The notes beneath the pieces are model-generated. The model saw only the letters and a program-made list of their open reading frames with translations. It searched no databases and was not told the DNA's origin. Source: Prorocentrum cordatum (lineage: Eukaryota). From it: a DNA stretch of 53,917 nt. The stretch lies in contig CAUYUJ010000283.1 of the NCBI GenBank assembly GCA_963575745.1, forward strand, positions 62,001 to 115,917, written 5' to 3'. This document shows positions 5,187 through 52,508 of this stretch, piece after piece. Position 1 is the first letter of the stretch, and every line of letters starts with the position of its first letter. A program made the position numbers and the translations under genes.

Positions 5187-5220
<34 letters not shown>

Positions 5221-5274
5221 GCGAGGAGGAGGAGGAGGGGGAGGAGGAGGAGGATGGGGAAGAGGAGGAGGAGG
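4940..5274 (+). repeat. (GGA)n-rich tract
   Basis: Directly visible; interrupted at ~5020-5105. Confidence 0.9.
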
Positions 5275-6220: not shown

Positions 6221-6252
<32 letters not shown>

Positions 6253-12914: not shown

Positions 12915-13162
12915 CCTCCTCCTCTTCCTCCTCCTCCTCCCTCCTCCCTCCTCCTCCTTCCTCCTCCTCCATCATCCCTCCTCCTCCCTCCTCCTCCTCC
13001 TCCTCCTCGTCCTCCTCGTCCCCCGCGTCCTCCTCGACCTCCTCGTCCTCCTCGTCCTCCTCGTCCTCCTCGTCCTCCTCGTCCTCCTCGTCCTCCTCGT
13101 CGTCCTCCCCCCCCTCCCCCCCTCCTCCTCCTCCTCCTCCTCCTCCTCCTCCTCCTCCTCCT

Positions 13163-15430: not shown

Positions 15431-15466
15431 TTCATTTTCATCTTCATCATCACCATCATCATCATA

Positions 15467-19417: not shown

Positions 19418-19564
19418 TAATAATCATCATCATCATCATCATCATCATCACCATCATCATCATCAGCATATCCATGCTCATCATATTTTTACTCACCATG
19501 GCCATCATCGTCGTCGTCTGTGTCGTGGCCGTCGTCATCATCACACCAGAAATCATCCTGATTT

Positions 19565-20440: not shown

Positions 20441-23400
20441 CTACACTACGGTAGGGAGCTCTTTAAGCTTCAGCCCTTGCTGAACAGACGCTCCGCACCT
20501 GGACTCGTCCAAGTGGCGGAGCCACACCCCGAAAGTTTGAATTGTGAACACATTTTTCCACGTGGAGAAATCTCTTGACTTCTCTGAGAGTGAAACCAGA
20601 GCGATCGTGTCCATGGGTCGCTGCTGCAGTTTTGGTCTCTTCTTATCGGCCTCGACTGCAGCCCTGAACCCATCCTTAGAAAATATGGTCTTCCAACCAG
20701 GTGGACGTGGCTCCTGCAGCATGCGAGCAAAAAACGGGTGGCCTGCAGCGAACGCAGCCGATATAAATATGGATCTCTGTGTGGCAGCACCGTTCGTCAA
20801 TACCAAATGCGCGCCACGTCTACCGTGCGACGTGAAGAAACTAGGGGTGCCGACTGTGCCACCTACCAGAGCTGAGGCCCAGAGAATCCGCTGGCCAGGG
20901 TTGGCAGGGTCGTTCGCAATGAAAATTGATGCGCTGCGAATATCATCGTCGCCAACCCTGGACAGTCTACATAACCGCAAAACCGAAGACACTTCAGCAT
21001 CCGCAATCTTACATGCAGGATGCACGTATACTTTCTTATCGAAAAAGGCTGGCTTCGGAAGGGAACTCACTCCTAAGCGTCTCATTTTTTTCCGTCGTTC
21101 CACATCGAACTTGTGGTCCCCAGCTTTCCTTTTTTTGATGCTTTCTTGCAAGTCTACTTCCAATTGTGAGTCCACCTCGCGGTCCAAAAGGTGGCCGTTC
21201 TCATATGATTGCACACGGTGTTTATATGCTTTGTCTTTGAGTTTTTTTTCAAAGGCTGCGCGTTTGTCCCCCCACGAAGACGAGCTTCTCGAAATAGCAT
21301 GCTTGAGTACATCTTCAGTCGATCGAGAGATCGCAGACGAACTGCCTTTACCAACCGCATTTCGCCTGTCGTCAAGAAACGATGTTTCAGTATTTGTTTG
21401 CAAACGTTTCTTTGCAAATCTGGAGCCCTTGTCAAACCGTATCTTTAATCGTTGGGTACCCGAAATCCGTGCTGCCCCGAAATACTCTGTCCAAATTGTG
21501 ATTGCGTCGGCAATTATTTGTTCTGTGTCTGACGGCTGTAAGTCCACTTTGAGTTTGAGTGAGACGAGTTCCATATGATCATCCAGGTGTTCGTGTCTGC
21601 TTGTGCCAAGCAGCTCTTCAAGCCGAGAAAAAACAGATTCCACCCGACTTGTTGTTGAACCAGAGTACCCCACGTATCGTTGCAACACAGGGGAAATAGC
21701 ATCCACAGGGTGCTTTGCACTCATGCTGTTCCTACTTTGCGATCGGCGGACTGCGACTCGCCACCCACCCTCTACGGCAACACCGCCTTGTCGTGAAACA
21801 TGCCTATCGTCCTCCCCTCTAGGTTACCAGGTTACCCGTGTACCCACATGCTTTGAAAACCATCCCAATGGTTTTACCCACCCTATCCCTTCAAATCGTT
21901 GTGTTATCATCTCTTGCCCTCACAGGGCTTTCAGTCCTAGAGGGGAGGCCGAGTAGGTATGTTTTCGGGCGTCCAGGCCTTTGTCGAACTCCTGCTTGGC
22001 ACAATAGAAGTGATCGGCCAGCTGCGATGCCAGAGACTCTGCATTGACCTTGTACGCTTTCGCCAGCCTGGCAACAGCAGCATCTGTTGAATGAAACTCC
22101 TTCGACGCCCCGTTCACGTTCAAATCGAGTATCCCAAACGCTTGCATTATGTCCCAAGCCGGAAACTCAGCATGCAATGTGGCAATCGTAAGTCTGACCC
22201 AGCTTGCGAGTCTGCCAATGCAGTTTTGCGTCAGGGCGTGGGTGATTTTCCAGGCCCCCCAATCGTCATCACAGAAATGCCTGTATGTATCATGATAACG
22301 TCGCTCAGTTGGTCCAGCATGTATTTAGTATACCCCACACTCAAGCATCCATCTTGCAAGAATATATAATCGATCCTTTTGACGAAAGCGTGAATCCGAG
22401 CTGGCCTCTCAGAAATGTCGTGCTGCCTGTCGTCGAAGTATCTTAATAATAAACTGATTTCGTCGCCTGCGTCGGCGAGCATCGCTAGTAAGATCAACCG
22501 TTCCTCAGATACCCAATCCAACCACTCGCGAATCCAAATTGCCTCGTCCCTGCCAGATCGAGTGGCCAGAACTTGAGCAAACACGCTGAATACTGCGGGC
22601 AAGAATAACACAAATCGTCCCAATGGTTTTTGTGTGCTCTGAAATCGCTGTTTCGCCGTCTGCAAGTTTTTGATGCGGCCACCTTTCACTGGGCAGTTTT
22701 CCAAGACACAAATGGTTTTCCTGAACATTTCTGAAAGCTGAGGTGAATATTCCAATATCGACGAAGCAGCTTTCTTACCCCTATGGTGAGAAACAATGCA
22801 CATCTGGAAAACTTCGTCTAATGCAGCGTCGTGCTTCCATGGATTCGCAAGTCTTGTGCAGGCGTGCGTTGGGTCTTTCAGCACCATCTTAAGATTCGGA
22901 AAAAAACTTGTCGCTCCGAGATTCTATCGTGCAAATGCCCTGCAATAGCTTCCCTGCCCGCTGCTCGTCGGAAGCAGCATCGGCCCCATATATCTCAGTA
23001 ATGTTTCGTAGGTGTCTGAGAAGTGTAGTATTCGTGGTATGCATCTCCTTCAACGGGTTCCACGATGTTTGCAAGCCACTGCGAGGAGTGCAGAAATCAC
23101 TGTATATCTGAATCGTTTGTGCACGCAATGATTCTGAGCCAGTTCCTTTCCTCATTTTCGCAAGTCCCAATATGCCCTGCCGCCTGTCCATGTTTGAGTT
23201 GGCAGCAACGAAATACGCACCGAGATGTAGTCGTCGACCATCCTGGTAAAGAGCAAGAACGCTAGCAGATTTCAACCAATCCCGATCTCTGTCTAGAAGC
23301 GCTTCTCCAAGACACCATGTCATTTTTGCTGCTTTTCTGCACCCCAATTCAGATGACCTCCACGACGTGTTGGCATTGATCTCTTTAAGTAGCTGTTGAA

Positions 23401-23986
23401 ATCGTTCTTTCTCGGGTGCACCCACCAAGTCTGTACTTTCGCTTTCTTTGCCCAAGTATTTGGTGATCGCAAGACGGTGACTCTTCATTGTGGCGTGCTG
23501 CTTGATCCTGCTCAGCCGATCTACAACACGAGCTCCAAAGCGCGACTCTGCTGAACGACCCGTATTCTTATAAGCCTGGTCGCACACCCAACAAGTGATA
23601 GTCGTCAGGTTGGCAGTGCTCTTGTCCAGTTTGATCCACACACCAGCTGCGGAGTTTCCCCTGTCAACCAAGCAGCAAGGTTCGTTCGCCCACTTGTTGT
23701 ATAGAGATGCGATATCCGTATGTTTTGGCGAACCATTGGCGAGCCGCGCGGCTACGCCTTTGCGAAATGCTGCTGACAACTTTGGTGGGGTCGCCTCCAC
23801 AGGCATTCCATGCTGCTTTTCAGGTGTTACACTATTCAGAAGACGATCTGCTCGCGACGCTTTCAGCAACATTTCGCAACATGCATGGGCCAAAACGGCT
23901 ACGGAACCGAAGCTGGCTGTGCGGCATTGTGTTTGGGGAAATCGTGTACCGCGTTTGCCGCTGTACTTCGGGACATCGTTTTTCAT
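20441..23986 (-). pseudogene. Divergent hAT-like DDE transposase with N-terminal Zn finger and extra C-terminal domain; frameshifted, probable intron ~21787-21970
   Basis: Motif order: CWVC...RIKQHATMKSH (TTF/BED-like C2H2); LYQDGR (D1); YGADAASDE (D2); KDPTHAC (CxxH position); KQRFQS (hAT RW.S position); AEFPAW; YSGSTTSRVESVFS (hAT S...ER.FS). Frameshifts near 22900 and 22230. The segment has lower GC than its surroundings. Confidence 0.7.
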
Positions 23987-25253
23987 GCTTCGTGTTCATG
24001 GCACAGAAGTGCTGGTTTTGCCAGCGTGGAGCCCAAACAGTGGGTGTTTTTTTGTTGCTTTTGCTTTTCAGATGTGGCATATGCAAGCCGCCATCCAAGT
24101 TGTGCAACCTAGGCGATGCAATATACCCGATGCGACTATGACTATGGTGGTGCAAGGTATCTTGTATATAATGCGCCATAGGATGCGCCATCTGTGGTTG
24201 CGCCATAGGTTGCACCATCCATAGGTTGCGAACGTGTCGAAACTTCGCTTGGTCCATCATCCAATAGCTAACGCCATATGTGTCCCCGAACAGCGCTTGC
24301 TCCTGAACGACGTAATTTCCCGAACTCTTACATGTGTTAGCGTTTTTTGTCTGAGCGTTTAGTCCTCTCCTCCCTCGCTCTGTTCCCTGCTGCTGCGTGG
24401 GCTGCTTATCTCTCGTCACTTGATTGGTCCCCCGATGTGTAATTCGAATGCCACATATCAATGCACGAGGGTGTTTGGGAGGCGTTCCGACACACAATAT
24501 GCCTGAGACTTGACATGTAAATCGAGGTCGCCGTCTGGCCTGCCTCTGCAAGCTGATGCACGCACGCGGCGCCAGTGACCTCAGAAACTTGATGAGTAAA
24601 AGCCTTCATCCAACTGAGCCGTGTGAGCCAAACCAGTTGAATCACGAGAGGCAACATATACACATAAACACGTACAAGTGGCACGTGCGCGCCCAGGCTC
24701 ATACAAAACATGCATGATGTACGCACGGGCGTTTGGATCGAGGACCGAGGATCGTGGATGAGAAAGTCCTTTGTGTTTTCGGACCCTGATGTCGCCTGCG
24801 CGAGGGATGCGATCGAGTTTCAGAATTATGAGGATGTCCCGAGCGAAACGACCAAAAACATCTTGGAAGGGACGAGACCTTCAATACATCGCTTCTGAGC
24901 TCTACTCTTTCGGAGAGGTGCCCATGAGAATCAGCGCCATCGCTTTGCCAAGCTGCGGAGTGAGGGTGTTTCTCGCCCTGCAAGCGGGTCCTTGGGGCTG
25001 TCGGCCCAGCGCGCTCAGGAGGCTCAGAGATGACTTAGCATTGCATGCTGGAGCCTAGCAAGCACGGTGGCGGTCGGGAGCGTAGCACGCTGGTGGCACC
25101 AGAAGGAGAAGGAGAAGGAAGGGCAGGGTGCGAAGTTTGAGATTGGGGAGAGGGACGGGGCAGGAGAAGAGTTTGGGAAGGGGAGGGCTGCGTGCACCCG
25201 CGCTCCATTCACAAAATTGCTCACGCCCCGATCTGCTGGATAATCCCCACTGA

Positions 25254-26749: not shown

Positions 26750-27740
26750 GTCCAGGGCGACCCGACCACTAGCCTTCATCAGTCCAGGACGACCCGAACC
26801 CAGGCCCACATCAGTCCAGGACGACCCGACCACTAGCCTTCATCAGTCCAGGACGACCCGAACCCAGACCCGACCACTAGCCTTCATCAGTCCAGACGCC
26901 CCGAACCCAGGCCCACATCAGCCGAGGACGACCCCGACACTAGCCTTCATCAGGTCCAGGACGAACCCGAACCAGGCCCACATCAGTCCGGACGACCGAC
27001 ACTAGCCTTCATCAGTCCAGGAGATCGCGAACCCAGCCCACATCAGTCCGGAGCACGAAACACACGCACCACCACCTCAATCAGTCCGGCCAACCCGAAC
27101 CCGGCCCACATCAGTCAGGACTCCACGAACCACTAGCCTTCATCAGTCCAGGACGACCCCGACAGGCCCAGGCCCACATCAGTCCCGGACGACCCGAACT
27201 AGCCTTCATCAGTCAGGACGACCAACCGCAGCCCACCACAAGTCCCAGGCCGACCCGACCACTAGCCTTCATCAGTCCAGGACGACCCGAACCCAGGCCC
27301 ACATCAGTCCAGGACGACCCGACCACCAGCCTTCATCAGTCCAGGACGACCCGAACCCAGGCCCACATCAGTCCAGGACGACCCGACCACTAGCCTTCAT
27401 CAGTCCAGGACGACCCGAACCCAGGCCCGCATCAGTCCAGGACGACCCGACCACTAGCCTTCATCAGTCCAGGACGACCCGAACCCAGGCCCACATCAGT
27501 CCAGGACGACCCGACCACTAGCCTTCATCAGTCCAGGACGACCCGAACCCAGGCCCACATCAGTACAGGACGACCCGACCACCAGCCTTCATCAGTCCAG
27601 GACGACCCGAACCCAGGCCCACATCAGTCCAGGACGACCCGACCACTAGCCTTCATCAGTCCAGGACGACCCGAACCCAGGCCCACATCAGTCCAGGACG
27701 ACCCGACCACTACCCGAACCCAGGCCCACAGCAGTCCAGA
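26750..27740 (+). repeat. Tandem array of 32-bp monomers alternating as a 64-bp dimer
   Basis: Constant catcagtccaggacgacccga (21 bp) followed alternately by acccaggccca or ccactagcctt (11 bp). Indel-rich stretch at ~26890-27250. Confidence 0.95.
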
Positions 27741-28519: not shown

Positions 28520-29311
28520 CGACGATGATGATGCTGATGATGCTGATGATGATGATGGTGATGATGGTGATGGCGAGTATGATGATGATGATGATGATGA
28601 TGCTGATGATAATGATGATGTTGGTGATGATGCTGGTGCTGGTGATTACGATGATGATGATGATGATGATGATGACGATGATGGTGGTGCTGGTGATGCT
28701 TGTGATGATGATGATGATGATGATGATGACGTTGATGATGATGGTGTTGCTGATGGTGGCAATGGCGATGGTTTTGGATACGATGGTAATGCCTACGATG
28801 AACACTACGACGACGATGATGATGGTGGTGATGGTGATGATGGTGGTGAGGATGATGCTGATGAGGGCAAACCTGATAATGGGGATGCTGCTGGTGATGA
28901 GGACGCTGATGATGATAATGATGATGCTGCTGATGATGCTGATGATGCGTATGCTGATGGTAACCATCACCCATGTATATCTATCCTCGTGCCTGCCAGC
29001 GCTACGCCTGGCTGGGCCGTCCCTGCCAGGCGCCACAGGCATTGCTAGCGACGGCGAAGGCAGCATCCCAGTGAAAGGGACGGCGCAGGAGGTGGAGACG
29101 GAGGGGGAGGAGGACGACGACGACGATGAGAACGACGTGGAGAAGATAAGAAATAGCAAGGATGATGAGGAGAAGGGATGGAAAGGAGGTGGTTGATAAG
29201 GATGACCGTGAGGAAAATGATGATGCGGATGGTGAGGATGATGATGATGCTGATGACAGTGATGATGACGACGACGACGACGATGATGATGATGATGATG
29301 CTGATGTTGAT

Positions 29312-29342
<31 letters not shown>

Positions 29343-29825
29343 CAGCTGACGATGATGGTGATGGTGATGGTGATGATGACGATGATGACGATGATGATGC
29401 TGATGATGATGATGAGGATGGTGGCGACGACGACGCTGATGGTGGAGTTACACTCATGGTGATGACGACGATGCGTACAATGCTTATGGGTATGATTGTG
29501 GTATGGTTGGATGTAGGCGATGGCAGTGAACATGATGATGCTGCTGATTATGATGATGAATATTGTGGTTATGGTGATGTTGATGATGATTATCATGATG
29601 ATGATGATGATGATGATGATGGTGATGACGATGATGATGATGCTGAGGAGGATGATGAAGGTGATGCAGGTGCTGAAGATGGGTGGCGATGGTGATTATA
29701 TCGGAGCCGATGGTGATGATGCTGGCTCCGACGCTGCTGATGGTGATGCTGATGATGTAACGATGATGATAATGACGATGGGAGTGATGATGATGATAAT
29801 ACTGAGGAGGACGCTGATAATGAGG
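28520..29825 (+). repeat. Degenerate (GAT)n tracts
   Basis: Directly visible; unique interruption at ~28965-29110. Confidence 0.9.
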
Positions 29826-32599
29826 AGGGGGAAGAGGATAACTACTACACGAATGCGCCTCGGCGGGCCGTGCACGGCCAGAACACAAACGATGCGTCGA
29901 ACGGCTCAGCTACCCAGAGCCTGAATCCACGGATTCTGCATCGGACTGAGGAGGAAGCGGAGGAGGGGGGAGGAAGGGGAGGAGGAGTAGGATAAGGAGG
30001 AACCCTCCATCGTCCTCATCCTTCCACCACCTCATCACTGAAACGTTGGCAGCTCGCGGCCACCGAAAAGCACCTACTCATGCGCGGAATCATCGGGCTC
30101 CTCATCGGCCTCTCCGCTGTCGCCACCCTCGGCCGCCTCGTCGGGCTCGGCCTCGTCACCAACCGAGGCCTTGGCAGTTGCCTTGGCCTTCGCCTTGGCA
30201 GTGACGGCCTTGCGCTTGGCAGCAGCACGGCGCCTCGCAGCAGCCTTCTTCTTCGCCTCGGCCTGTGCCCCTGCCGTAGTCTCGGTGCTCTCGAACGCGC
30301 ATTTCATGTGGCTGTCGTAGAACTCAGCCACCTCCGCCTTGTACTTATCGTCGTTGTCCTCGTTCCGAAACTCCTGAAATACTTTCGCGGCCAGCCACGA
30401 GTGCATCATGTCAGCGTGCAGCTGGGCATGCGTGAAGCCTAGATACGGCGCCTTCTCGTTGATGGCTTCGATGGCAAACTGTCCATCGTGAGCAGTGAAA
30501 TCTATGATGGCTTTCGGCTTGAAGCGATGGATGACTTCTGAATACCACTTCCTCGGCATCGCGTGGTAATTGGCAGGCTCCACGTCCGCGTCGTTCCGCT
30601 GGCCCTTCATGTCGCAGTAGTTCTCACCGTCGGGCGAAGCGCCACCGACGTCGGCGCGGCCAGACTTGCCGAACATGTCTTTCTTCTGGGCGAACGTGGC
30701 CTCCCAAGGGCGCTCGACGGAGTCAGCGGCCACGGAAGGCATGTCCAAGAAGCCGATGACCGAGCCTTTGGAGGTCCCGTTGAAGTGCCGATTTGCCTGC
30801 ATCTTGATGTTGAGACTCTCCTTTGTCACGATGAACGCGGTCTCCTCCTGACTGAGTGACATCGGGCCTTTGGCGACGGACCTCTTCTGCATGAGAGCCT
30901 CCTCAGAATACAGGATCTTCAGCTTGGTCCTCGAATGTTCCATCGTGTCCTCGAGTGCTTCAGCGATCGATGCATCGATGTATCCCCCCCAGGGCCCCCG
31001 TCCCTCCTCAGGTCTCCTATCTCTCGTCTCTCCTTCCCCTTCGTTTTTGTTTGGCAAGCCGATTTGAACGCAGATCCTCCTTCTCCACCTCCTTCCTCCC
31101 TTGTTCCCTCCTTCCGTTGTTGTTTCAAACCGACTTGAAACAACAATTCCTCCTCCTCATCCCTCCTCCTCATCCCTCCTCCTCCCTCCTCGTCCAGGGG
31201 ATCAAAGGGTCGGGATACATCGATTTATCAACACAAAAACCTTGTTCGGAGCCCTCCAGGGCTTGATCAGCTTCGCGTGGTTGCCCTCCTTGCCGTTGTC
31301 CAGCACCATGTACAAGTCGCCTTCGTGCAACGCGCCATCCAATCCACGAGACTTGATCATCATATTCACGCATTGGTCGAGATGCTCGCCCTTGCCGCGG
31401 AGGGGTGGGTCACGAATGTGAGGCATTGTGGCTGCTTCGCATGCTTGCTTAGGGTCGTAGTGGATGATCACGTAGCGCTGCTCCCCCGTCTCGGCCCTGA
31501 TCGTGCCCACGTGGCAATCGTTCATCAGCTGCTTGAACGCCTTCTCAGACGTTGGCTTCACAGTCAGCTTGACTGTCTGGTTCACCTGCCGGATGCACGC
31601 CTCATGGATCTCGGTTGCCTGCTCCTTGATCTCCTCGCTCCACCCGTTCACGATCTGGTAAATCTTCGCTTTGCTCGCGTCGGTCATGATAGCATAGTTG
31701 TCGCCAAACAGCGAGTAGAAGGGCTTCAACTTCGCCTCGATGCGACTATCCCGCGCCGCCGAGGCCGCAGTCGAATTGGCAGCACTGGGCGCGGCAGCGG
31801 CCTCGGACTCGGCGGGCCCGAGGGACAAGGAAGGCGGGGTATCCGCGTCTTGCGCAGCCTTGCCCTCCGTTGTCAAGATCTCCTCGACCTCGTCGAGGCT
31901 GCCCCTGACGGTCTCATTATCCAAGATGTCTTCGACTGCCCTCGAAGCTCGAGCCTGGTGGTGGATCGTATTGTTGAACGTGCTGCCGTAGACGAACCCC
32001 TCGATGAAGGTCAACAGCAGCTGCGAACTCGGCTGGAGTGCCGACATCCACGTCAGGTCTGCTGCCCCCGTCCTGCCGTTCCCGAAGTAGGACCTGTAGC
32101 TCGCCCAGCTCGCGACGGCTTCCCGCATGATCGTCTTGTCTTGAGCTTTGAAGGGCCTCGTCTCCATCCACGTGTTGACCATATAGTTCTTCATCTGGTA
32201 GCGCAGGAGGAACTCGTCGATTTTCCCTTTCCCGCCTTGTCCTTTTCCGCTCAAGCTACGGGAGGACAGCTCGCCACGCACCGTGGGAGCCTCTGAGACC
32301 ATATCGACGATCGTGTCAATGCACCACAGCCTCTGATGAACGTCGGATGTCTTGCGGGAAATCGCCTCGAACTTATACAGGGAATCGAACGGCGTCTTGT
32401 GCGAGCCCAAGTTCTGTTCGGCCTGGAGCACGCGGTTCCTCGGGCGCGAAGAACTCCTCAAGGTACGCCAACACCGAACATGGGGAATGAACCACTGTTT
32501 ACTCGGGTGGGCCCCAAACAGTGAGTTGAGTACGGGATTACGGATGTGACCTATACGAAGCGTGCTCAAAGTAGTTGTTTATAGTGCCTGATTGGGCTC

Positions 32600-32980
32600 A
32601 TTTCGGGTTTAGGGTATTCGGGTATCAGGGTGTTCAGGCTTTAGGGAGTTATGGCCGTGGGGTTGCAGGGTATTTGGGTCGTAGGGTCTTAGGGGGTCAG
32701 GGTGTTATATGTTTAGGGTGATAAGGTATCAGGGTATTGTGATGGTCGGGCTTTATGGCTGTAGGGCATTCGGGACTTAGTTTCTTGGGGCATTATGGCC
32801 TTAGGGCTTTCGGGTCGTAGGGCCTCTGGGCGTTGGGGTTTTGGGGTCTTCTGGTATTACGGTATTATGTGCTCTAGGGTCGTGTATTCTCAAGGCATTA
32901 GGGGGCTCGGGTCTTAGGTCTCAGGGTTTTAGGGCCTTGCTGCGTTAGGGTCTTAGGGTCTCAAGGTGTTAGGGCCCCAG
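32600..32980 (+). repeat. Degenerate TTTAGGG/TCTTAGGG-like tract
   Basis: Many tttaggg, cttaggg, tcaggg and ttcggg words with ~8-nt period. Confidence 0.65.
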
Positions 32981-33199
32981 GGAGGAGGATGAGAGGGAGA
33001 GAGAAGGGAGGAGGGAGCGGAGGAGGAGGAGGGGTGTGTGTTTTTCCAATGTGGTTTGACAGAGAGGGCGGAGGAGAGAGGTGGGAGGAGAGGGGTAGGA
33101 GAGGAGGGGGAGAAGGTGGAGGAGAGAGGTGGGGGGAGATATGGACGATGAGCTTTCACTCTCTCACTCGGCCACTCTGAGTCCCGTGGACTCCGCCGA

Positions 33200-34060
33200 T
33201 CAGCCACTGCTGCTGGAGGACTTCTCCGACTTCTCCAGCGCAAAGCCCCTGCCGTCGTCGCCCTCGGTGTACTCGCGCTCACTGTGAGTGTCTATGTCGC
33301 ACCTCAGGGCGAAGGTTCTGACGCGGCCCCTCGGGGCGCTCTCTGGACGACCGCCATGCGGGCCCATGGCTTTGATGAACCCCTCGCGGAGGCGCGGTGG
33401 GATGTCGTCCCACGCCTCGTAGGCAAGGGAGCACGTGATGACCCCGCACTTCGTCCAAGTGCCGTTGTACTTCAGCTTCGTGTCGTCGTCGGGCTTGGCG
33501 CCGGGCTTGGCGTAGGGCTTGGCGTGTACTGGCGTAGGGCTTGGCGTCGGGCTGGACTTTGCTGGCGTAGGGCTTGGCGTCAGAGCTTTCGGAGCTGGTT
33601 GCATCTCTAGCTTTGCTGGCGTCTGAGGAGCCTCAGCTGGAGGTGCCGAACACGTTGGCAAGGTCGGCCGAGCGCTCGAAGGACTACCTGCCAGCACCTC
33701 AGCGCTGGCCTCTGCGAAACTCCTCATCATCTGCGGCGGCGCCGGGGGCGGCATCTCGGGCTCTGGCGCCTTCTGCGGCGCGGCCATCTCCAGCATGTGC
33801 TGGAACAGGTCGGAGTCGGTCGGCATCTGGGAGTCCTGAGTGGCTCTCGTTCCACATAGTCCAATCTCCTCTGCTCGCTCCTCTCCCCCTCCCCCCCCTT
33901 GCGGGGGGGATGGGCGGGCATTGAACGGGATCGATCGGACTGCGCGGAACGAGAGCCTGTCCTGCGGCTCGTCGGCGGCCAAGTCCAGCGGCGACTCAAC
34001 CATCGTGTCCTCTGCGCCGCCGTACAGGTCAGGGCCAGGAAGTGCGGGCTGCGACGCCAT
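33200..34060 (-). CDS. Hypothetical protein, 286 aa, Pro-rich middle and small globular-looking C-terminus
   Basis: Uninterrupted ATG-started ORF (MASQPALPGPDL...KLKYNGTWTKCGVITCSLAYEAWDDIPPRL) lying between two coding blocks of the MTase-like gene. Confidence 0.5.
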   Translation of the reverse strand: MASQPALPGPDLYGGAEDTMVESPLDLAADEPQDRLSFRAVRSIPFNARPSPPQGGGGGEERAEEIGLCGTRATQDSQMPTDSDLFQHMLEMAAPQKAPEPEMPPPAPPQMMRSFAEASAEVLAGSPSSARPTLPTCSAPPAEAPQTPAKLEMQPAPKALTPSPTPAKSSPTPSPTPVHAKPYAKPGAKPDDDTKLKYNGTWTKCGVITCSLAYEAWDDIPPRLREGFIKAMGPHGGRPESAPRGRVRTFALRCDIDTHSEREYTEGDDGRGFALEKSEKSSSSSG

Positions 34061-34097
34061 CTGATGCAGCTGCAGAGGTGTCGCTTGTGCTACTGTC

Positions 34098-34201
34098 CCT
34101 GGACTGCTTTACAGGGCAGCCAAGACGAGAGGCCCAGACGACTCACCCTCCTGTGAGTCGTTCGGTCCCCTCGTCTTGCCTGCCCTTTAAAGCGGTCCAG
34201 G
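34098..34201. other. ~104-nt imperfect hairpin
   Basis: cctggactgcttta-c-agggcag-c-caagacgag...acgactcac [cctcct] gtgagtcgt...ctcgtcttg-c-ctgccct-t-taaagcggtccagg. Confidence 0.85.
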
Positions 34202-34424
34202 CTGCGACAAACAAGTGAGCTACTCTCCACATTGTGCTCGAATCGAAACAGCTACGGGAGATGACGAGGACGAATGGCGCAAGCGCCAGGAGGGCTGGCC
34301 TCCCCAACTAAGGGGTGGTTTGGGGAGTACGCAGGAACCCCTGCTCATATTTATCCTCTTCTGCCTGCTGCTCCTCGCTGCAGGCAGAAGAGGATGAATA
34401 TGATCCCCCTCCTCAGATCTTCCT

Positions 34425-34568
34425 CCTCCTCCTCATCATCATCATTATCGTCTTAGCACTCTCCTACTCATAATCATCCGCATCATGTTCATCGTCATCA
34501 TCGGCATCATCATCAGCATCATCATAGTGATCACCATCAGCAGCATCAACACCATCAGCATCACCACC

Positions 34569-34599
<31 letters not shown>

Positions 34600-34965
34600 C
34601 CACCATCATCATCATCAACATCATCATCATCATCATATTCTTCATCATCATCACCATCACTATCATCATCATCATCATCAGCATCATCATCAGGAGGAGG
34701 AGGAGGAGGAGCAGGAGGAGGAGGAGCACAAGGAGCACGAGGAGGAGAAGGAGGAGGAGGAGAACCAGGAGGAGGAGGAGCAGGAGGAGGAGAAGGAGGA
34801 GAAGGAGGAACACGAGGAGCACGATGCTGATGATGATGATGATGATGATGACGATGGTGATGATGATGATGATGATGATGATGGTGATGGTGATGGTGAT
34901 GGTGATGATGATGATTATAATGTCCTCCTCGTCCTCCTGCTCCTCGTCCTCATTTGTCCTCATCC
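34425..34965 (+). repeat. Compound (CAT)n-(GGA)n-(GAT)n microsatellite
   Basis: Directly visible; the CAT and GAT tracts are complementary arms around a GGA core. Confidence 0.9.
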
Positions 34966-36159
34966 TCTTTCTCGGCCTCCTCGTGTTTCCACTGGGGCCG
35001 TGGGGCGAGGGAAGGAGGGGAAGAGGGCGATTTCGTTGGAGCGCTCCTTCTTCAGGTAGACGACCACCGCGATGTAGTCTGCTGTGACCTTCTCAGAGGA
35101 CGGGGCGAGCTCAACCTTTTTAAAATCTCTCTCGATCTTCGCAGGGTCGCTGGAACCACTGCGATTCAGGTACGACACCACCTGGCAGTAGCGCTGCATG
35201 GGGGTGAGGGCGAGGGCAGCCTGCTTGTGGCCGAACCCCTCGCGATTCTCTAAGCCCTTCCAGAAGAGCTCGTCTGTGCTGGTCACCTTCTTGAACGTGC
35301 ACGCAGTGTTCAAGAAGCACGCCCTCCACGTCGCCATGATCTCGTCGTTGTCGCCGTGCTCGTCGATGTCCTCGGCCACCCGCAGGAGCAGCGCATATCG
35401 AATCTCCTCGCACGAGGTCGCGCGCAGGTGGCCGTGTGATTCAGGGTCGGCCGGGTCTTCACCGTCTGTGATGCAGATCTCGAGCGGCTCTGGATTGGTG
35501 GGGGGTGGCCTTCATGTAGCTCGTCTGCATCAGGTGCTCTATAGACTTCATATTCAGAGGCACGCCACTCTGCGGCGTCCACATCACACTGGCCCACCAG
35601 AAATTTATATTCGAAGTGCTCGTGCCGACGTCCTTCATATTCTTAGCGTAGGCCTTACTGTCGAAAGCCGCCATGTTGAGGTCTTGGGGGGCAGCAGTCG
35701 TGATGTCTGAGAACTTGCTATGACCCAATATCTTCTCATAAGCGTCCTGCACCTTGGCCAGGACACTGGTGTTCACGCTGCGGGTCTCCTCGTCGATGTT
35801 GAATCCGAGACGAGGCGCCTTCGGCGGAGGACCATCTGATCGTTTCGGCGGTGCGGACTTTTGCCGTTTAGCCATCTGGATGTGGCGCCGAAACTCGAAA
35901 CTGATTGAAGCAGAACTGCTATGGGAGGTCATGGAGGACGGATACAAAAAAAAATTATCCCGGCAAAGCAACCTAACAGCGATGTGTAGAAGCATATCTG
36001 AAAGCATTCCCCTTAAGATTCAGATGAAAGGCCTCCAAAAAAAAACAAAAGAGTTGGAGAGCAGGAAAGTGTTGTCGAATTCTGCTTTCTCGCAGTCGTA
36101 GTCGCTCGCGATGACAGGTCGCAGCGGCACGGCAGCGGCAGTCCACAGCCTCAGCCTTC

Positions 36160-37517
36160 AGCCTGCTCCTTCTCCCTCCGGGTCCTCCTCCTCTTTCTCC
36201 TGCTCCTCCTCCTCCTCCTCCTCCTCCTCCTCCTCCTCTTCCTCCTGCCCTCGTCCTCGTTTCTCGTCCCTCCTCGTCTTGCTCGTCCTCCTCCTCCTGG
36301 TGCTCTCGACTTCTCCTCCCTCCTCCTCCTCCTCCTCCTCCTCCTCCTCCTCTGCCTCCTCCTCCTCCTCCTTCCTCCTCCTCCTCCTCCTCCTCCTGGT
36401 GTCCTCGTTCTCCTCCTCCTGGTGCTCTCCCCCCCCCTCCTCCTCCTCGTCCTCCTCCTCCTCCTCCTCCTCGTCCTCCTCCTCCTCTTCCTCCTCCTCC
36501 TCCTCCTCCTCCTCCTCCTCCTGGTAGTCCTCCCCCTCCCCTCCTCCTCCTCCTCCTCCTCCTCCTCTTCCTGGTCGTCCTCGTTCTCGTCCTCCTCGTC
36601 TTGCTCGTCCTTCTCCTCCTGGTGTTCTCTCCTCCTCCTCCTCCTCCTCCTCCTCCTCCTCCTCCTCCTCCTCCTCCCCTCCTCCTCCTCCTCCTCCTGG
36701 TGGTCCCCTCGTTCTCCTCCTCCTGGTACCTCCCCCCCCCTCCTCCTCCTCCTCCTCGTCCTCGTCCCCTCCTCCTCCTCTCCTCTTTCCCTCCTCCTCC
36801 CTCTTCTATTTGTCTTTTTTTTTTTTCGTTTCACTATCTTGTTCTACTCTTTTTTTTTTTTCTTTCTCCTTTTCTCTCTTTCCTTCTTCCTGGGGGGGGG
36901 GGTTGTCTTTTGTTTTTCTTACTTTCCCCCATTTTCCCTCCTCCTCTTTCTCTGCTCCTCCTCCTCCTCTCCTCCTCTTCCTCCTGCTCGTCCTCGTTCT
37001 CGTCCTCCTCGTCTTGCTCGTCCTCCTCCGCCCTGGTGCTCTTCTCCTCGCTCCTCCCTCCCTCTCCTCCCTCCTCCATCCTCCTCCTCCTCCTCCTCCT
37101 CCTCCTCCTCCCTCCCTCCTCCTCCTCCTCCTCCTCCTCCTCCCTCGCTCCTTCCCTCCTCCTCCTGTGGCCTTCGTTCTCCTCCTCCTGGTGCTCTCCC
37201 CCCCCTCCTCCTCCTCGTCCGCCGCCTCCTCCTCGTTGCTCCTCCTCCTCTTCCTCCTCCTCCTCCTCCTCCTCCTCCTCCTCCTCCTGGTAGTCCTCCC
37301 CCTCCCCTCCTCCTCCTCCTCCTCTTCCTGGTCGTCCTCGTTCTCGTCCTCCTCGTCTTGCTCGTCCTCCTCCTCCTGGTGTCTCTCCTCCTCCTCCTCC
37401 TCCTCCTCCTCCTCCTCCTCCTCCTCCTCCTCCTCCTGGTGGTCCTCGTTCTCCTCCTCCTGGTACTCTCCCCCCCCCTCCTCCTCCTCCTCCTCGTCCT
37501 CGTCCTCCTCCTCCTCC

Positions 37518-37552
<35 letters not shown>

Positions 37553-37770
37553 CTCCTCCTCCTCCTCCTGGTACTCCTCCCCCTCCCCCTCCTCCTCCTC
37601 CTCCTCCTCTTCCTGGTCGTCCTCCTCCTCCTGGTCGTCCTCCTCCTCCTGCTCGTCCTCCTCCTCCTCCTGCTCGTCCTTCTTCTCCTGCTCCTCCTGC
37701 TCCTCGTCCTGCTCCTGCTCGTCCTCGTCCTCCTGGTCTTGCTCGTCCTCCTCCTCGTCGTGCTCTTGCC
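36160..37770 (+). repeat. Long (CCT)n-rich tract with internal repeated words
   Basis: Directly visible; recurring ctcgttctcgtcctcctcgtcttgctcgtcc and ctggt words. Confidence 0.95.
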
Positions 37771-37777
37771 CCTGCTG

Positions 37778-38273
37778 AAAATGTGGCCCAGGAATGGAGT
37801 TCTGGGAAGTCGAAGAGCACGAAGTTGCCTACAGTTGGCTACGGGCATTCAAAATGTGGCCCGGGAATGGAGTTCTGGGACTCGAAGAGCACGAAGTGGC
37901 CTACAGTTGGCTCCGGGCATTCAAAATGTGGCCCGGGAATGGAGTTCTGGGAACTCGAAGAGCACGAAGTGGCCTACAGTTGGCTCCGGGCATGCAAAAT
38001 GTGGCCCGGGAATGGGATTCTGGGAACTCGAAGAGCACGAAGTGTGTGACTGTTGCATCCGGCCCTCCAGAATGTGGCCCGGGAATGGAGTTCTGGGAAC
38101 TCGAAGAGCACGAAGTGTGTGACTGTTGCATCCGGTTATTCTAAATGTGGCCCGGGAATGGCGTTCTGGGATCTCGAAGAGCACGAAGTGTGTGACTGTT
38201 GCATCCGGGTATTGAGAATGTGGCCTGGGAATGGAGTTCTGGGAACTCGAAGAGCACGAAGTGTGTGACTGTT
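37778..38273 (+). repeat. Tandem repeat, ~72-73-bp unit, ~7 copies
   Basis: aatgtggcccgggaatggagttctgggaactcgaagagcacgaagtg followed by one of two tail variants. Confidence 0.95.
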
Positions 38274-38509
38274 GGTGAAAAACGAGCCCGGCACCTGCCG
38301 CCCGGCAACTCCCAACACCTGCCCGGACCCCCCTGTGGAGTGATCTGTGAGCTCTTTTGAGACCACTAGAAACCTATCAGTCTTCGCTGTTAGGTAAAAC
38401 AAAGTCTTGATAGCATACAACTCGTGCGTGGCACAGCCACGGCTAGCAAAGTCTTGTTAGCATACATTTCGTGCGTGGCTACAAACGCGGCACGGCACCA
38501 CCAGCATGG

Positions 38510-38853: not shown

Positions 38854-38933
38854 GATATATTTAGCGTGTGACTATTTTTGTCATCGCCTCATTTCTTTTT
38901 TTGTGTCATTGTATAAGATAGTTGTTTGATGTA

Positions 38934-41900
38934 CGGCCGGCACAAGGCTTAAGAACTTCGGTGGTTCGGGGAGGGTACCCTTATGTTCTTCGTTTTTGTT
39001 CCATGTTCTTGTGCACCCTGGGGAAGGGTATCCTCGATGTTCTTCAGTTTGGCGCCATTATTCCTTCGTTCTGACAAAGCTGGGGTTCGGGGCTCACGAT
39101 TCGGCTACGAGCGTCCGCGGCGGGGGCGGGACCCTCCATGTTCTTCGGTCCCGAAGTCACGGTGCGGCCTTCAGCAACCGCATGCCCCTTCATGATGGTG
39201 GTGCGATTGCAATCACCCTCGCATGTTCTTAGGGGACTGTTTGGCGTTGGTGGGCTTCGGGCTGCGGGGCTTAGGGCGTGCGGATGCAGGCTTTATTGAG
39301 GCTACGTACGCACGTCGGCCGCAGGGCTCGCGCGTCCGCGGCACGGGCAGGACCCTCCATGTTCTTCGGTTTCGATGTCAATGTGCGGCCTCCAGCAACC
39401 GCGTGCCCCTTGATGATGGCGGCGTGAGTGCAATCACCCTCGCATGTTCTTAGGGGAGAACTTGGCGCTAGTGGGCTTCAGGTTTCGGAGAGTAGGGTGC
39501 GCGGCTGCAGGCGTGAGGCTAGGGCGGGCGGGCGAAGCCACGCGCAGCTTCCTGGGCTGCGGCAGGGCTGAGAGGTTGGATGTGCGGATGACGTTCAGGA
39601 CGTAGCGCTGACGTCGGTCCTATGCTAAGGCCCATGGGGTAGGCCGCAGGGCTCGCGCATCCGCGGCGCGGGCAGGACCCTCCATGCTCTTCGGTCTCGA
39701 TGTCAAGGTGCGGCCATCCGCAACCGCGCCCCCCTGGATGATGGTGGCGCGAAAGGAATCGCCCTCGCATGTTCCTAGGAGAGAGTTTGGCGGTTGTTGG
39801 GCATCAGAGCGGGGTATGTGCGCGCGTGCGTGCGTGCGTGTGTGCGTGTGTGCGTGCGTCCTACCGAGGGCCACGCAAAACTTGACATGCGCGTCTGCGC
39901 TGCCGAAAGCGAGTTAAGAGGCCCGCGTTGTCAGCAATAGGAGAGTCGCCATGTTGGCTTGGAAAATCAAAGTGAACCTTCAGCGTCGCCAGTCAGATTT
40001 CCAAGTTAGCATGCACCAAAACCCATGTTAACTTGGAAATCAACTGCCCACTTCCAAGGGCTCCCTTTGAATTCCCCAGTCAACGCGGCAACTGTCCTAT
40101 TGCTGGCGCTGCGGCGTTTCTCGCGCGCGCGCGCCGCCGCGCGCGCGGCGGCGCAGGAACGCGCGAGAAGTTTTGCGCGCGCTGTTGCAGAAGACATGCA
40201 CCAGCAACCCATGTTAACTTGGAAATCCAAGTGGCAACCGCTAAGGGTTCACTTTGATTTTCCAGGCCAACATGGCGACTCTTCTATTGCCGATAACGCG
40301 AAGCCCCGCACGCGCACACGCCGCCGCGCGCGCGGCGGCGCAGGCGCGCGCGAGGAGTGTTTGTCTGCGCTGTTGTAGAACACATGCACCAAAACCCATG
40401 TTAACTTCGAAATCCAATCGGCAACCACTAAGGGTTCACTTTGATTTCCCAGGCCAACATGGCAACTTTTCTATTGCTGATAACGCGGGCGCGCGCGAGG
40501 GGTTGTTGTATACGCCGTTGCAAGACACGTACACCAGAACCCATGTTGACTTGGAAATCCAATCGGCAACCGCTAGTGGTCCACTTCGATTCTCCAGGCC
40601 AACATGGCGCTTCTTCTACTGCTGATAACACTGAGCGCCCCACGCCCCTGCGCCGCGCGCGCGAGAAGCGTTTGCATGCGCCGCTGCAGAACACATGCAC
40701 CAAAACCCATGTTAACTTGGAAATCAAACTGCCCACTTCCAAGGGCTCCCTTTGAATTCCCCAGTCAACGCGGCAACTGTCCTATTGCTGGCGCTGCGGC
40801 GTTTCTCGCGCGCGCGCGCCGCCGCGCGCGCGGCGGCGCAGGAACGCGCGAGAAGTTTGCGCGCGCTGTTGCAGAAGACATGCACCAGAAACCATGTTAA
40901 CTTGGAAACCCAAGTGGCAACCGCTAAGGGTTCACTTTGATTTCCAGGCCAACATGGCGACTCTTCTATTGCCGATAACGCGAAGCTCCGCACGCGCACA
41001 CGCCGCCGCGCGCGCGGCGGCGCAGGCGCGCGCGAGGAGTGTTTGTCTGCGCTGTTGTAGAACACATGCACCAAAACCCATGTTAACTTCGAAATCCAAT
41101 CGGCAACCACTAAGGGTTCACTTTGATTTCCCAGGCCAACATGGCAACTTTTCTATTGCTGATAACGCGGGGCGCCCCACGCGCACGCGCCGCCGCGCGC
41201 GCGGCGGCGCGGGCGCGCGCGAGGGGTTGTTGTATACGCCGTTGCAAGACACGTACACCAGAACCCATGTTGACTTGGAAATCCAATCGGCAACCGCTAG
41301 TGGTCCACTTTGATTCTCCAGGCCAACATGGCGCTTCTTCTACTGCTGATAACACTGAGCGCCCCACGCCCCTGCGCCGCCGCGCGCGCGGCGGCGCCGC
41401 CGCGCGCGCGGCGGCGCAGGCGCGCGCGAGAAGTGGTTGCATGCGCCGTTGCTGAACACATGCGCCAGAGCCCATGTGTTCTGCAGCGGCGCATGCAAAC
41501 GCTTCTCGCGCGGCGGCGCAGGGGCGTGGGGCGCTCAGTGTTATCAGCAGTAGAAGAAGCGCCATGTTGGCTTGGAGAGTCAAAGTGGACCACTAGCGGT
41601 TGCCGATTGGATTTCCAAGTCAACATGGGTTTGGTGTACGTGTCTTGCAACGGCGTATACAACAACCCCTCGCGCGCGCCCGCGCCGCGCGCGCGCGGCG
41701 CGCCGCCGCGCGCGCGGCGGCGCGTGCGCGTGGGGCGCCCCGCGTTATCAGCAATAGAAAAGTTGTCATGTTGGCCTGGGAAATCAAAGTGAACCCTTAG
41801 TGGTTGCCGATTGGATTTCGAAGTTAACATGGGTTTTGGTGCATGCGTTCTACAACAGCGCAGACAAACATTCCTCTCGCGCGCCTGCGCCGCCGCGCGC

Positions 41901-42826
41901 GCGGCGGCGTGTGCGCGTGCGGAGCTTCGCGTTATCGGCAATAGAAGAGTCGCCATGTTGGCCTGGAACACATGCACCAAAACCCATGAGTTGCGCCGCT
42001 GCAAAACCCAGAGTTGTCGGGGGCGCCGCGGGGTTGGGGCGAGAGCTCGCGCGCGTGCATGAGTGCCAGGGCGTGAGACGTGGCGCTGAGGCCCACTGCT
42101 AGAGCCCTAAGCTGGCCGCAGGCCTCGCGCGTCCGCGGCGTGGGCAGGACCCTCCATGTTCTTCGGTCTCGGTGTCAGTGTGTCGCCTCCAGCAGCCGCG
42201 CGCTCGTGGATGACGGCGGCGCGGAGACGCACACCCTCGCATGTTCTTGTTGTGGGGCAACAGCAGCCTGGAGCTGGGCCTAGGGTGGCGGGGGCCAGGC
42301 CGCGCGGCCGCGGCCTTGAGTCTGGGGCGAGCAGGCGAGGTCGCGCGAGGCCCCCTGGGGCGCCGCGGGGCGAGAGCTCGCGCGCGTGCATGAGTGCCAG
42401 GGCGTGAGACGTGGCGCTGAGGCCCACTGCTAGAGCCCGACTAAGCTGGTCGCAGGCCTCGCGCGTCCGCGGCGCGGACAAGACCCTCCATGTTCTTCGG
42501 TCTCGATGTCAACGTGCTGCCTCCAGCAACCGCGCGCTCGTGGATGACGACGGACGCGCGGAGGCAGATCCAGGGCACAGGAACACAGCGTGGATCTCGG
42601 GGGGCGGGGGGGGGGGTCAGGGCTTCGGGGTTGCGTGGTCCAGGCTGTGCAGTCGAAGGCTTTAGGCTGGGGGCTGAACCAGATGCGTACTTACGCACGT
42701 TGGCTCGGAAGTGAAGGTCGGGGACACATCGGAAGGGCGTCCTCGACGTCCTTCTGGTTTGGGGTACTTTGGCCCGCGGAGGATCTCATGTTATTGTCCG
42801 ATGTTATTGTGGCCTTGTTCTGGCCG
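38934..42826 (+). mobile_element. ~3.9-kb TA-flanked non-autonomous TIR element, copy 2, with internal inversion 40010-41476
   Basis: TA|cggccggcacaaggc...gccttgttctggccg|TA. Collinear with 15467-19417 except for the inverted satellite block. Confidence 0.8.
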
Positions 42827-43329
42827 TAGCGGACGTGTGATGTTATAGTGTGTGGCTGTGATGTTTTGTATGTTACGCATGTTGTATCTATACTACATTA
42901 TGATATGACGTTATATGATGTGATATTGTGTTTTGTGGTGTTTTCGCGAGCGCCCAGGATGGCACACTCTTGTTTCACCAGGTTGTTTTCGCGAACGCCC
43001 ACGGTTGCACGTTACTGTTTCAGCGGGTCGTTTTTGTGAACGCTCAGGGTGGTACATTTCTCTTTATTCGAGATCGTGGCAAGCGTTATGTGATTTTATG
43101 TTGTGGCATATGATGTCGGATGTTGGCGAATGATGTTATGCATGGTATGTTATGTCCTGGTTTGATATGTTATGCTGTGATATGTTATGCTACGTTATGT
43201 TAAGTTATGTCAGGACGTATGAATTTGATGTCGTGATGGCGACGGGGATGTTGGGTAGTGAGTGTGGTTCATGGGCTGCTGCGCGAGGAGGGAGGATAGG
43301 GAGGAGGGGGAAGCTTTTGAAGGAGTCGG

Positions 43330-45945: not shown

Positions 45946-46061
45946 TGTTTTCTCTTTCTGTGCGCGGGGTGTGCACATCGGTTTCATTCCCATCGGAGTG
46001 GTGACGCCTTTGATCTACAACTACCAGCAGAGCGCGGAGTTCTGCAACTCTCTTCGTCGGC

Positions 46062-46991
46062 ATGGCCGACTCCGACAATCAGAATGGCGCCGTCAGGAGG
46101 TTCTCGGGTGACAAGCCCACCGAGTACAAGGCGTGGAGGAAGTGGGCGAGAGCATGGATCAAGTCCAAGAATAACAATGAGGATGCTCGAGGCTCAGCAC
46201 TGGTCACTCTCCTGACGGGGGCGGCCTTCAGGGCCATCGAGGACGTCGAGGACGACCTCATCGAGCAGGCTGGCGGAGATGATGTGATCTTCGCCATCCT
46301 TGACGACAAGTACCCCGACCTCCCAGCCACAGACCGGCTGGGCGAGGTGATGCGTGCCTGTCCGAGGCTCAAGACCCACAAGCATGAAGAGGCCAACGCA
46401 TACACTGCCCGAGCCAGGGCCATCTTCGCTGATGCCGAGCGCAAAGGTATTGTCTTGCCAGAGATCGCGCGCGGCATCATGCTTCTCGAGGGTTGCCACC
46501 TGGACTCCGAGAAGGAGGCGGTCGTCATGGCCGCAGCCCACAGCTCCTGGCGGGAGCCCGACGTCGCTAGAGCTCTGAGGACCACGTATCGGGCAGGCCT
46601 TGGGAAGATGGCCATGGGCGGTCAGAGTCACTACAAGGCCTTCGTGGCTGAGCAGGAGCTCGACGGCGACGAGACTATCGAGGATGACGACGGCGACCCG
46701 GAGTGCGACGCACTTTTGGCCGACCACGGAGCACATGATGATGCCGACCCACCTGTTGATGAGCGGGATCTCATCGACGCCTTGATCTCATGGACGGAGC
46801 AGCGGAAGCTACACGGGAAGGTCAAGTTGGGTCGAGGTTTCGTGAAACCGAACCTAGAGGCGTATCGTCCAACAGAAAGGTGCCACAGTTGTAAAAAGAT
46901 CGGCCACTTTCAGAAGGACTGCAAGGGGCCTCGCAAATCCACGGCAGGTACGAGCTCTACCGAATCAGTGAAGAGTCAGTTTTTCACATAA
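46062..46991 (+). CDS. gag: Gag with CCHC zinc knuckle
   Basis: 309-aa ORF; FSGD..EYKAW near the N-terminus; RCHSCKKIGHFQKDC (CX2CX4HX4C). Confidence 0.9.
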   Translation: MADSDNQNGAVRRFSGDKPTEYKAWRKWARAWIKSKNNNEDARGSALVTLLTGAAFRAIEDVEDDLIEQAGGDDVIFAILDDKYPDLPATDRLGEVMRACPRLKTHKHEEANAYTARARAIFADAERKGIVLPEIARGIMLLEGCHLDSEKEAVVMAAAHSSWREPDVARALRTTYRAGLGKMAMGGQSHYKAFVAEQELDGDETIEDDDGDPECDALLADHGAHDDADPPVDERDLIDALISWTEQRKLHGKVKLGRGFVKPNLEAYRPTERCHSCKKIGHFQKDCKGPRKSTAGTSSTESVKSQFFT

Positions 46992-47002
46992 TGTTTCTCT
47001 AA

Positions 47003-52275: not shown

Positions 52276-52508
52276 CATCACCGCAGGGGGGACTGAGCTG
52301 TTTTCAGTCGTGTGTAGTTTTTGTTCTCGCGTTTCAAAGATACCCGCATGTGCGTTTTGGCCTGTTGGTGGAAAAAGCGGTTGCGACGAGTGCGTCTACT
52401 CTATGGGGGCAACCAACACCGATGCCAAGCACGTCTCCTATGTACCTTGTGGCTCAAGCATTTCTTTATGAGGCACCTCGTGTACGACCTTCCACACGGT
52501 GCTCAGAG

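Follow-up and report, generated by a model that had tools for sequence, protein, structure and literature searches.

A three-exon gene of a large, unannotated dinoflagellate family in Prorocentrum cordatum, with a probable but degenerate methylase-like C-terminal end

Introduction

Does a transposon in the red-tide dinoflagellate Prorocentrum cordatum carry its own DNA-modifying enzyme? The question is raised by a gene between positions 30074 and 35875 of a 53,917-nucleotide stretch of contig CAUYUJ010000283.1 (assembly GCA_963575745.1, positions 62,001 to 115,917 of the forward strand). This whole stretch is called the window here, and all positions refer to it. An initial inspection of the letters alone, the sequence-only reading, had proposed a transposon-borne, intron-containing gene in which a ParB-like domain is joined to a DNA methyltransferase-like domain. 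The explanation we favour, and to which as a whole we would give an even chance, is a three-exon nuclear gene of P. cordatum that belongs to an unannotated ('dark') family and whose C-terminal domain (C-domain) would be a diverged, non-canonical methylase fold, in a copy that we do not place in a transposon.

No function is assigned to 52.2% of the 85,849 P. cordatum genes in the available text of the genome paper (PMC10666404), and the family described here, with 665 clusters, is one of the large unassigned dinoflagellate families. What we can report at present is a well-defined family whose fold assignment is plausible but unproven, represented here by an ordinary gene copy that may be decaying.

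Gene structure

The locus holds one minus-strand gene, whose ATG (35875-35873) and TAG stop codon (30076-30074) coincide exactly with the ends of the interval that had been proposed from the sequence. The same proposal spoke of three co-oriented blocks; these stand as one intron-containing gene with three exons, while the underlying open reading frame (ORF) pieces, taken from stop to stop on the minus strand, number four and not three (35459-36019, 34960-35511, 31202-32578 and 30074-31156). Every motif string quoted at that stage is found in the gene's ORFs: GVPLNMKSIEHL, PLEICI, ENRE and LTPMQR all lie in the N-terminal ORFs, VIIHYDPK in ORF 31202-32578 and YHAMPRKWYSEVIHRFKPKAIIDFTAHDGQFAIEAINEKAPYLGF in ORF 30074-31156. 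In the spliced protein VIIHYDPK lies 198 residues upstream of the C-terminal motif (residues 233-240 as against 438 in P0001, the closest protein), in agreement with the earlier estimate of about 200.

A profile built from the 19 longest homologues matches the window collinearly over three exons and covers positions 18-907 of its 923. Profile positions 18-126 fall on 35492-35836 (E 1.1e-21), positions 123-278 on 35050-35505 in another frame (E 5e-25) and positions 277-907 on 30110-32473 (E 1.2e-145), and the profile found no second family copy in the window. Agreement of this kind far exceeds what chance would produce. The four ORF pieces are thus predicted to form one three-exon gene with a product of about 930 residues.

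Exon 1 (35047-35875, minus strand, 3' end approximate) starts at the ATG at 35875 and encodes a basic N-terminus and the conserved family N-domain, as judged by translations, the profile and junction scoring; it spans two frames owing to an extra C in 35500-35505. Intron 1 (32457-35046, about 2.6 kb) was placed by homology, because the collinear profile match leaves out this interval. It ends in an AG acceptor, and the best-scoring junctions give it a GC donor in the window allele or a GA donor in the read-supported allele, types that the available text of the genome paper treats as normal in P. cordatum (PMC10666404). Exon 2 (31241-32456) encodes the helical middle domain, an acidic and Ala-rich linker and the first half of the C-domain. 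Intron 2 (30950-31240, 291 nt, GT..AG) has an in-frame stop inside it; its junction, …NK|DTMEH…, is identical in the NCBI model P0001, and P0002 and P0003 are continuous across it. Exon 3 (30074-30949) encodes the second half of the C-domain and a charged K/A/E-rich tail up to the stop codon.

Intron 1 also contains a (TCA)n array (34468-34692) and an unrelated ORF at 33200-34108 on the minus strand. This ORF has 302 codons, is co-oriented with the gene, is unmatched by the family profile and has no Pfam match; contigs of run X5, a sequencing run of unknown type, cover 33468-34079 within it.

A large unannotated family

P0001 is an unnamed P. cordatum product of 600 aa that differs at 7 of 600 residues (E 2.8e-185 in a word-based search with the last ORF). 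That search returned three proteins, the other two being unnamed proteins of 566 and 562 aa, and a separate, 'longer' protein search with exon 2 gave no match. An exhaustive phmmer search with ORF 31202-32578 as query reached far deeper, with 665 clusters (counted at 50% identity) at E<=1e-3, 180 at 1e-10 and 4 at 1e-30. Full-length relatives of 840-1101 aa hold the N-terminal, middle and last blocks in one chain, and five parts follow one another along the protein: a basic N-terminus, the conserved N-domain, the helical middle domain, the C-domain and a charged low-complexity tail.

Members that carry a species name belong to P. cordatum and Symbiodinium sp. CCMP2592, the latter with six variants of 941-945 aa that are 97.9-99.8% identical and are spread over 9 accessions on separate contigs. 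The remaining members that were looked up are unnamed metagenome or Logan proteins, save one labelled 'MAG … [bacterium]'. As far as these sequences go, the family appears to be a very large and unannotated dinoflagellate one. No description of it was found in the literature searched, and the available text of a review of eukaryotic adenine methylases (PMC4738411) contains no dinoflagellate PF01555-like clade. A search of the ESM Atlas with the N-terminal half (P0044) reached a best score of 0.76 and gave no lead.

The C-terminal domain

The case for a methylase fold turns on about 60 residues of the C-domain. The stretch YHAMPRKW…IIDFTAHDG…YLGFTHAQLH (30416-30568, minus strand) would correspond to helix X, motif I and strand 2, as judged by hhalign, a ranking test and column counts, and nowhere else in the protein does similarity to beta-class amino-methylases have statistical support. 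PF01555 alignments for these comparisons were built from E. coli yhdJ and bacterial genomes. When 38 family C-domains were aligned with 35 PF01555-type sequences, hhalign gave a score of 28.9 (P 0.0045), with columns 272-330 of the query falling on 187-247 of the template. Reversing the query lowered the score to 16.5, and column shuffles gave 13.2 +/- 2.4, with a maximum of 21.9 and 0 of 150 reaching the observed score. In this alignment the family pattern 'EPvf.H..p...y.El.h....k.viDlT..DG..A......PY.G' falls on 'HPtqKPe.Ll..i......VLDPF.GsGTT..A..lgR..iGiE'.

With 34 small methylases as template the 38 C-domains scored 30.9 (P 0.0025), and here block shuffles gave 13.4 +/- 2.25 (maximum 20.6, 0/100), the reversed query 15.1 and the N-domain 13.8. 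A further pairing of family and methylase alignments met the same columns at 22.7 (P 0.059). A ranking of 773 bacterial ORFs, 198 of them methylases, by the family profile put methylases in the top 7 places and in 8 of the top 10, and every match joined these profile columns to the C-terminal end of the enzyme. A structure search of the ESM Atlas with P0001 gave 10 rows, of which 7 are PF01555 clusters; TM values are 0.32-0.67 by row, and alignments cover 224-296 residues within P0001 residues 26-529.

Within motif I, the family columns hold D 24/34, G 14/34, D 24/34, G 25/33 and A 31/34; the window copy reads IIDFTAHDG, in which H takes the place of the first G. The acidic position beyond strand 2 (E/D 21/32) is shifted by two residues. 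The sequence-only reading had called the domain methylase-like, and this is partly supported: helix X, motif I and strand 2 score above all controls in two of the comparisons, and the similarity does not extend to a Pfam-level match or to motif IV.

The proposed site of motif IV, as positioned by relaxed hhalign alignments, is occupied by the family's most conserved motif, [YF]-D-x-K-x-x-G-E-x-x-T-x-P-x-x-R-x-P-P-L-R, which VIIHYDPK (31448-31471, minus strand) opens in the window copy. Column counts here are D 82/102, K 64/102, G 81/101, E 94/101, P 95/99 and R 98/99. The residue after the conserved D is Pro in 20 of 102 members and V in 31; the K column follows and then a variable one, the window copy reading Y-D-P-K. 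By these counts the catalytic (D/N/S)PP(Y/F/W) loop is absent at the proposed site throughout the family. Degeneracy of the DPPY and FxGxG motifs, noted before in this one copy, is therefore a property of the whole family. The identification of VIIHYDPK with motif IV found no significant match: the N-terminal halves of the family C-domain and the methylases align at 14.9, a score that 6 of 80 shuffles equal or exceed. A replacement loop that is near-invariant suggests a function, and one other than canonical amino-methylation.

Taken together, these comparisons lead us to believe that the C-domain probably has a methylase fold, most likely a highly diverged and permuted one of the beta-class, PF01555-like amino-methylases. 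The half that forms the cofactor pocket (helix X, motif I, strand 2) would be kept, and the catalytic loop would be replaced by the near-invariant D-x-K..G-E..P..R. The methylase-like end is probable but degenerate. We would not expect such a protein to methylate DNA in the canonical way; it may instead be a nuclear pseudo-enzyme that binds DNA or chromatin, or an enzyme that carries out a different reaction.

Weighing the methylase assignment

A number of results weigh against this assignment, and they are best considered together with the alternative that survives best. In that alternative, which we regard as unlikely, the family is unrelated to methylases and has its own fold, and the C-terminal similarity is due to chance or to a generic Rossmann-like succession of helix, strand, loop and helix. 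No Pfam domain, PF01555 included, was found in any of the 152 family members scanned (0/152) or in the four ORF pieces of the window (0/4), with E up to 10 allowed for the pieces and for 45 members. PDB sequence and profile searches and NCBIfam searches gave nothing relevant and no methylase, and PHROGs gave one weak 'methyltransferase' match (P0014, E 0.09) and a low-complexity match for P0001. Probabilities assigned by hhalign are small (0.9-11.7%), and the outcome changes with the alignments used: one pairing had its top match elsewhere (17.6, P 0.28), and fusions of ParB and methylase domains as template reach only 14.0-15.3 on the same columns. The comparison of N-terminal halves was negative, as given above. 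In the ranking test a Mann-Whitney comparison over all 773 ORFs was not significant, and when single members were scored against the methylase profile, 1-3 of 38 exceeded the 99th shuffle percentile and 6-7 of 38 the 95th. All ESM Atlas rows are flagged as under the service's own bar, and the model used has a mean pLDDT of 0.54. The near-invariant residues of the loop fit an active site better than a dead domain, and the exon junctions are predicted from homology and the NCBI model.

Against a family without methylase kinship, however, three template sets align the same 58-61 columns, with scores above 250 shuffles and all cross-controls. The top 7 of the 773 ranked ORFs are all methylases, each matched at its own motif X-I end, and structure and feature searches of the ESM Atlas return PF01555 independently.

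Next in order comes a reading that we hold to be rather improbable, in which the members are active, non-canonical enzymes of the dinoflagellate nucleus that modify DNA or RNA with S-adenosylmethionine and D-x-K..G-E..P..R is a new catalytic loop. It would account for the conservation of the loop's E, P and R and of further residues (Q 49/54, E 50/54, H 31/32) at about 25% overall identity, and most members retain motif I glycines and an acidic residue beyond strand 2. Of 34 members, however, just 14 have the first of these glycines, for which the window copy has H, and in the bdelloid methylase N4CMT a change of SPPY to APPA abolishes activity, according to the available text of that study (PMC8885841).

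State of the gene copy

Contigs from four public runs of DNA or unknown type (X1, X2, X5 and X10) were aligned to the window, and none of them joins exons across either intron. In exon 1, a run of six C breaks the frame at 35500-35505 (minus strand). Run X1, the sole aligned run covering the site, has five C there, which restores the frame (depth 15.9/15.9, 1 contig). Near the start of exon 2 the window has a 5-nt deletion at 32437-32438 (minus strand), where runs X1, X2 and X10 carry 5 extra letters at all of their depth; these letters improve the fit of the junction peptide to the family (profile score 132.0 as against 129.3). The window copy thus has two frame-breaking indels relative to public reads, at 35500 and 32437, which points to decay of a duplicate or allele or else to an error of assembly. 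It also has a non-consensus residue at two conserved family columns, and 9 of the 11 listed exon substitutions are non-synonymous. Run X1 corresponds to the P0001 allele: its listed changes include 6 of the 7 at which P0001 departs from the window's translation.

Over 30074-35875, run X1 differs from the window by 15 C>T, 13 A>G, 7 G>A and 6 T>C changes and by 12 transversions, several of the transitions falling at CpG of Ala or Pro codons. A transition excess at CpG is expected for heavily CpG-methylated DNA.

The transposon question

The window is GC-rich, at 0.49-0.68, and abounds in triplet and tandem arrays. Two of these, detected with TRF, lie on either side of the gene: a (TCC)n-type triplet array upstream (36183-37756) and (GAT)n/(ATG)n triplet arrays downstream (28524-29666). 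The 'inverted repeats' around the gene turned out to be only such triplet arrays, of (GAT)n, (TCA)n and (TCC)n, which are 58-79% similar. Pfam found no transposase domain among the 44 long ORFs of the window, where the sole matches, RVT_2 and zf-CCHC, belong to a copia-like element at 46-53 kb, and neither a terminal inverted repeat (TIR) nor a long terminal repeat (LTR) bounding the gene was found in the window. The claim that the gene is transposon-borne is not supported by these results, since the flanking matches are triplet microsatellites and no transposase domain was found in the long ORFs. Residence in a TIR transposon was considered as a candidate and, with no TIR or transposase found in the window, is rejected on present evidence.

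The AT-richer region at 20-24 kb, downstream of the gene, has a different character. Its ORFs (20441-23995) have no Pfam or PDB relative, and ORF 22889-23995 among them has 3 homologues. At the 5' end of this ORF, positions 23884-23904 (minus strand) differ by 3 mismatches from what we take to be the dinoflagellate spliced leader, where 0.01 such matches are expected by chance. This relict spliced-leader-like sequence therefore suggests a retrogene, that is, a retroposed copy of a trans-spliced mRNA rather than a transposase gene.

A broader form of the mobile-element idea deserves separate treatment. An unrecognised element, either mobile or of viral descent (from a polinton-like virus or a phage, for example), could carry the family as cargo or as its sole protein, and the window would then hold one decayed insertion; we judge this improbable, and it follows the active-enzyme reading in rank. 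The near-identical Symbiodinium variants on separate contigs and the 665 diverse clusters would suit it, as would the frame-breaking indels and mostly non-synonymous changes of the window copy, and the available text of a preprint reports that marine polinton-like viruses often carry N6_N4_Mtase (bioRxiv 10.64898/2026.05.28.728513). On the other side, no TIR, LTR or transposase surrounds the gene, 0 of 152 members are fused to a mobile-element domain and the introns are of spliceosomal type. Scans with P0001 and P0006 against metagenome contigs and with P0050 against viral contigs gave no matches, and dispersed duplicates make up 64.8% of P. cordatum genes anyway, as stated in the available text of the genome paper (PMC10666404).

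The N-terminal domain

The N-domain had been read as ParB-like. We recovered 11 bacterial or phage ORFs of the ParB_N + N6_N4_Mtase type among 20, and later 38, of 413-488 aa, and compared the N-domain with the ParB parts of 11 and then 28 of them. The scores were 19.1 and 19.2 (P about 0.07), the matched columns lying within the core 'P.lv…aGHGR..AA' region; none of 100 shuffles came as high, the best being 18.9. An unrelated control, the family C-domain against ParB, gave a spurious 22.2, which is above these scores, and other comparisons of C-domain and ParB gave P 0.54-0.77. Against chromosomal ParB the N-domain reached P 0.35 and against methylases P 0.069, 0.4 and 0.58 (all by hhalign). 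In the best alignment the arginine of the ParB GxxR motif falls on a variable column (S9 V6 E5 T5 M4 of 49), and the PF02195 ParB/Srx domain has a Pfam match in 0 of 152 members. The ParB-like N-terminus is thus within noise, and as a reading of the sequence it is unproven.

Relation to known methylases

With the PF01555 enzymes (CcrM, E. coli YhdJ, small type II and phage enzymes) the family shares about 60 residues, in which helix X 'HPtqKP..L', motif I 'VLDPF.GsGTT..A' and strand 2 'iGiE' have counterparts. The matched stretch likewise lies near the C-terminus, and relaxed alignments are collinear over the whole domain. Unlike these enzymes, the family has no Pfam-level match, has D-x-K..G-E..P..R in place of DPPY and has a partly degenerate glycine loop, and its domain is one of three in a eukaryotic protein of about 930 residues that also has charged tails.

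The ParB_N + N6_N4_Mtase fusions offer the same order, a possibly ParB-like N-domain followed by a methylase-like C-domain, and one ESM Atlas row is a viral cluster of this kind. Yet the ParB similarity does not rise above noise, the family lacks the GxxR arginine and the fusions are not the closest methylase templates (14.0-15.3); full-length hhalign comparisons of family and fusions gave P 0.41-0.69. The fusions are also half as long, the dinoflagellate proteins adding a helical middle domain of about 200 residues.

Among eukaryotic proteins, the bdelloid N4CMT is similar in having a bacterial-type PF01555 domain in a nuclear protein, fused to other modules. As described in the available text (PMC8885841), it keeps SPPY, is active and is recognised by Pfam, whereas the dinoflagellate family lacks both SPPY and a Pfam match. 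Precedents for methylase domains, active or dead, that were multiplied in eukaryotes, dinoflagellates included, are the DNMT-bearing retrotransposons of Symbiodinium and the inactive methylase domain of DIRS1 elements (available text of PMC5890265 and PMC4738411). Those are C5 or PCIF1-type domains in retrotransposon polyproteins, and the family differs in that reverse transcriptase, integrase and transposase are all missing, both from the protein and next to the gene.

If a methylase fold with a rebuilt active-site loop is the true explanation, the family would offer an entry to how dinoflagellate genomes are marked or read, and it would add to the examples of eukaryotes taking over a DNA-modification domain from bacteria or phages. 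Dinoflagellate chromosomes are nucleosome-poor and rich in hydroxymethyluracil and 5-methylcytosine. Such a setting would suit a more ambitious reading, very improbable in our view, in which a phage-type ParB-methylase left a descendant that branched into hundreds of lineages, rebuilt its loop, kept its cofactor pocket and became a new enzyme that modifies DNA or reads its modification, perhaps as a selfish multi-copy gene. Last comes the proposal closest to the one from which we started, a TIR DNA transposon whose ParB-methylase fusion marks its own DNA or resists silencing, to which we give hardly any weight: the weak match on the ParB core recurs with two templates and the one viral ESM Atlas row fits, but the P of about 0.07, the higher-scoring unrelated control, the variable GxxR arginine, the poor match to chromosomal ParB, the lack of TIRs and transposase and the retrogene suggested for ORF 22889-23995 all speak against it.

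Repeats and other elements of the window

Immediately upstream of the gene, 75-150 nt before the ATG, lies a fragment of about 78 nt from a very high-copy repeat (35950-36029, minus strand), which occurs once in the window. Its bin depth in run X1 is 26,934, as against about 11-16, and 19 contigs in X1 and 97 in X5 meet at 35990. The ends are loose (35950-35953 and 36027-36029), other copies diverging on both sides. Neither the repeat nor the window as a whole has an Rfam match, and the repeat folds no better than shuffles (z 0.30).

Tandem arrays flank the gene region, with 64-nt units repeated 14.8 times at 26750-27712 and 73-nt units repeated 6.8 times at 37778-38274. Farther out, two repeats of about 4 kb (15465-19419 and 38932-42828) are 95-97% identical and direct overall; they carry an inverted middle part and internal tandem units, are internally rearranged, and bracket 19.5 kb that hold the retrogene-like ORFs and the studied gene. 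An inverted repeat pair at 5106-6341 and 12015-13086, with arms of about 0.6-0.8 kb at 78-82% identity, encloses about 6 kb without a Pfam-recognisable ORF. The copia-like retroelement occupies 46014-53210 on the plus strand, with a zinc-knuckle ORF followed by a 1313-aa ORF that contains RVT_2 (E 1.3e-17).

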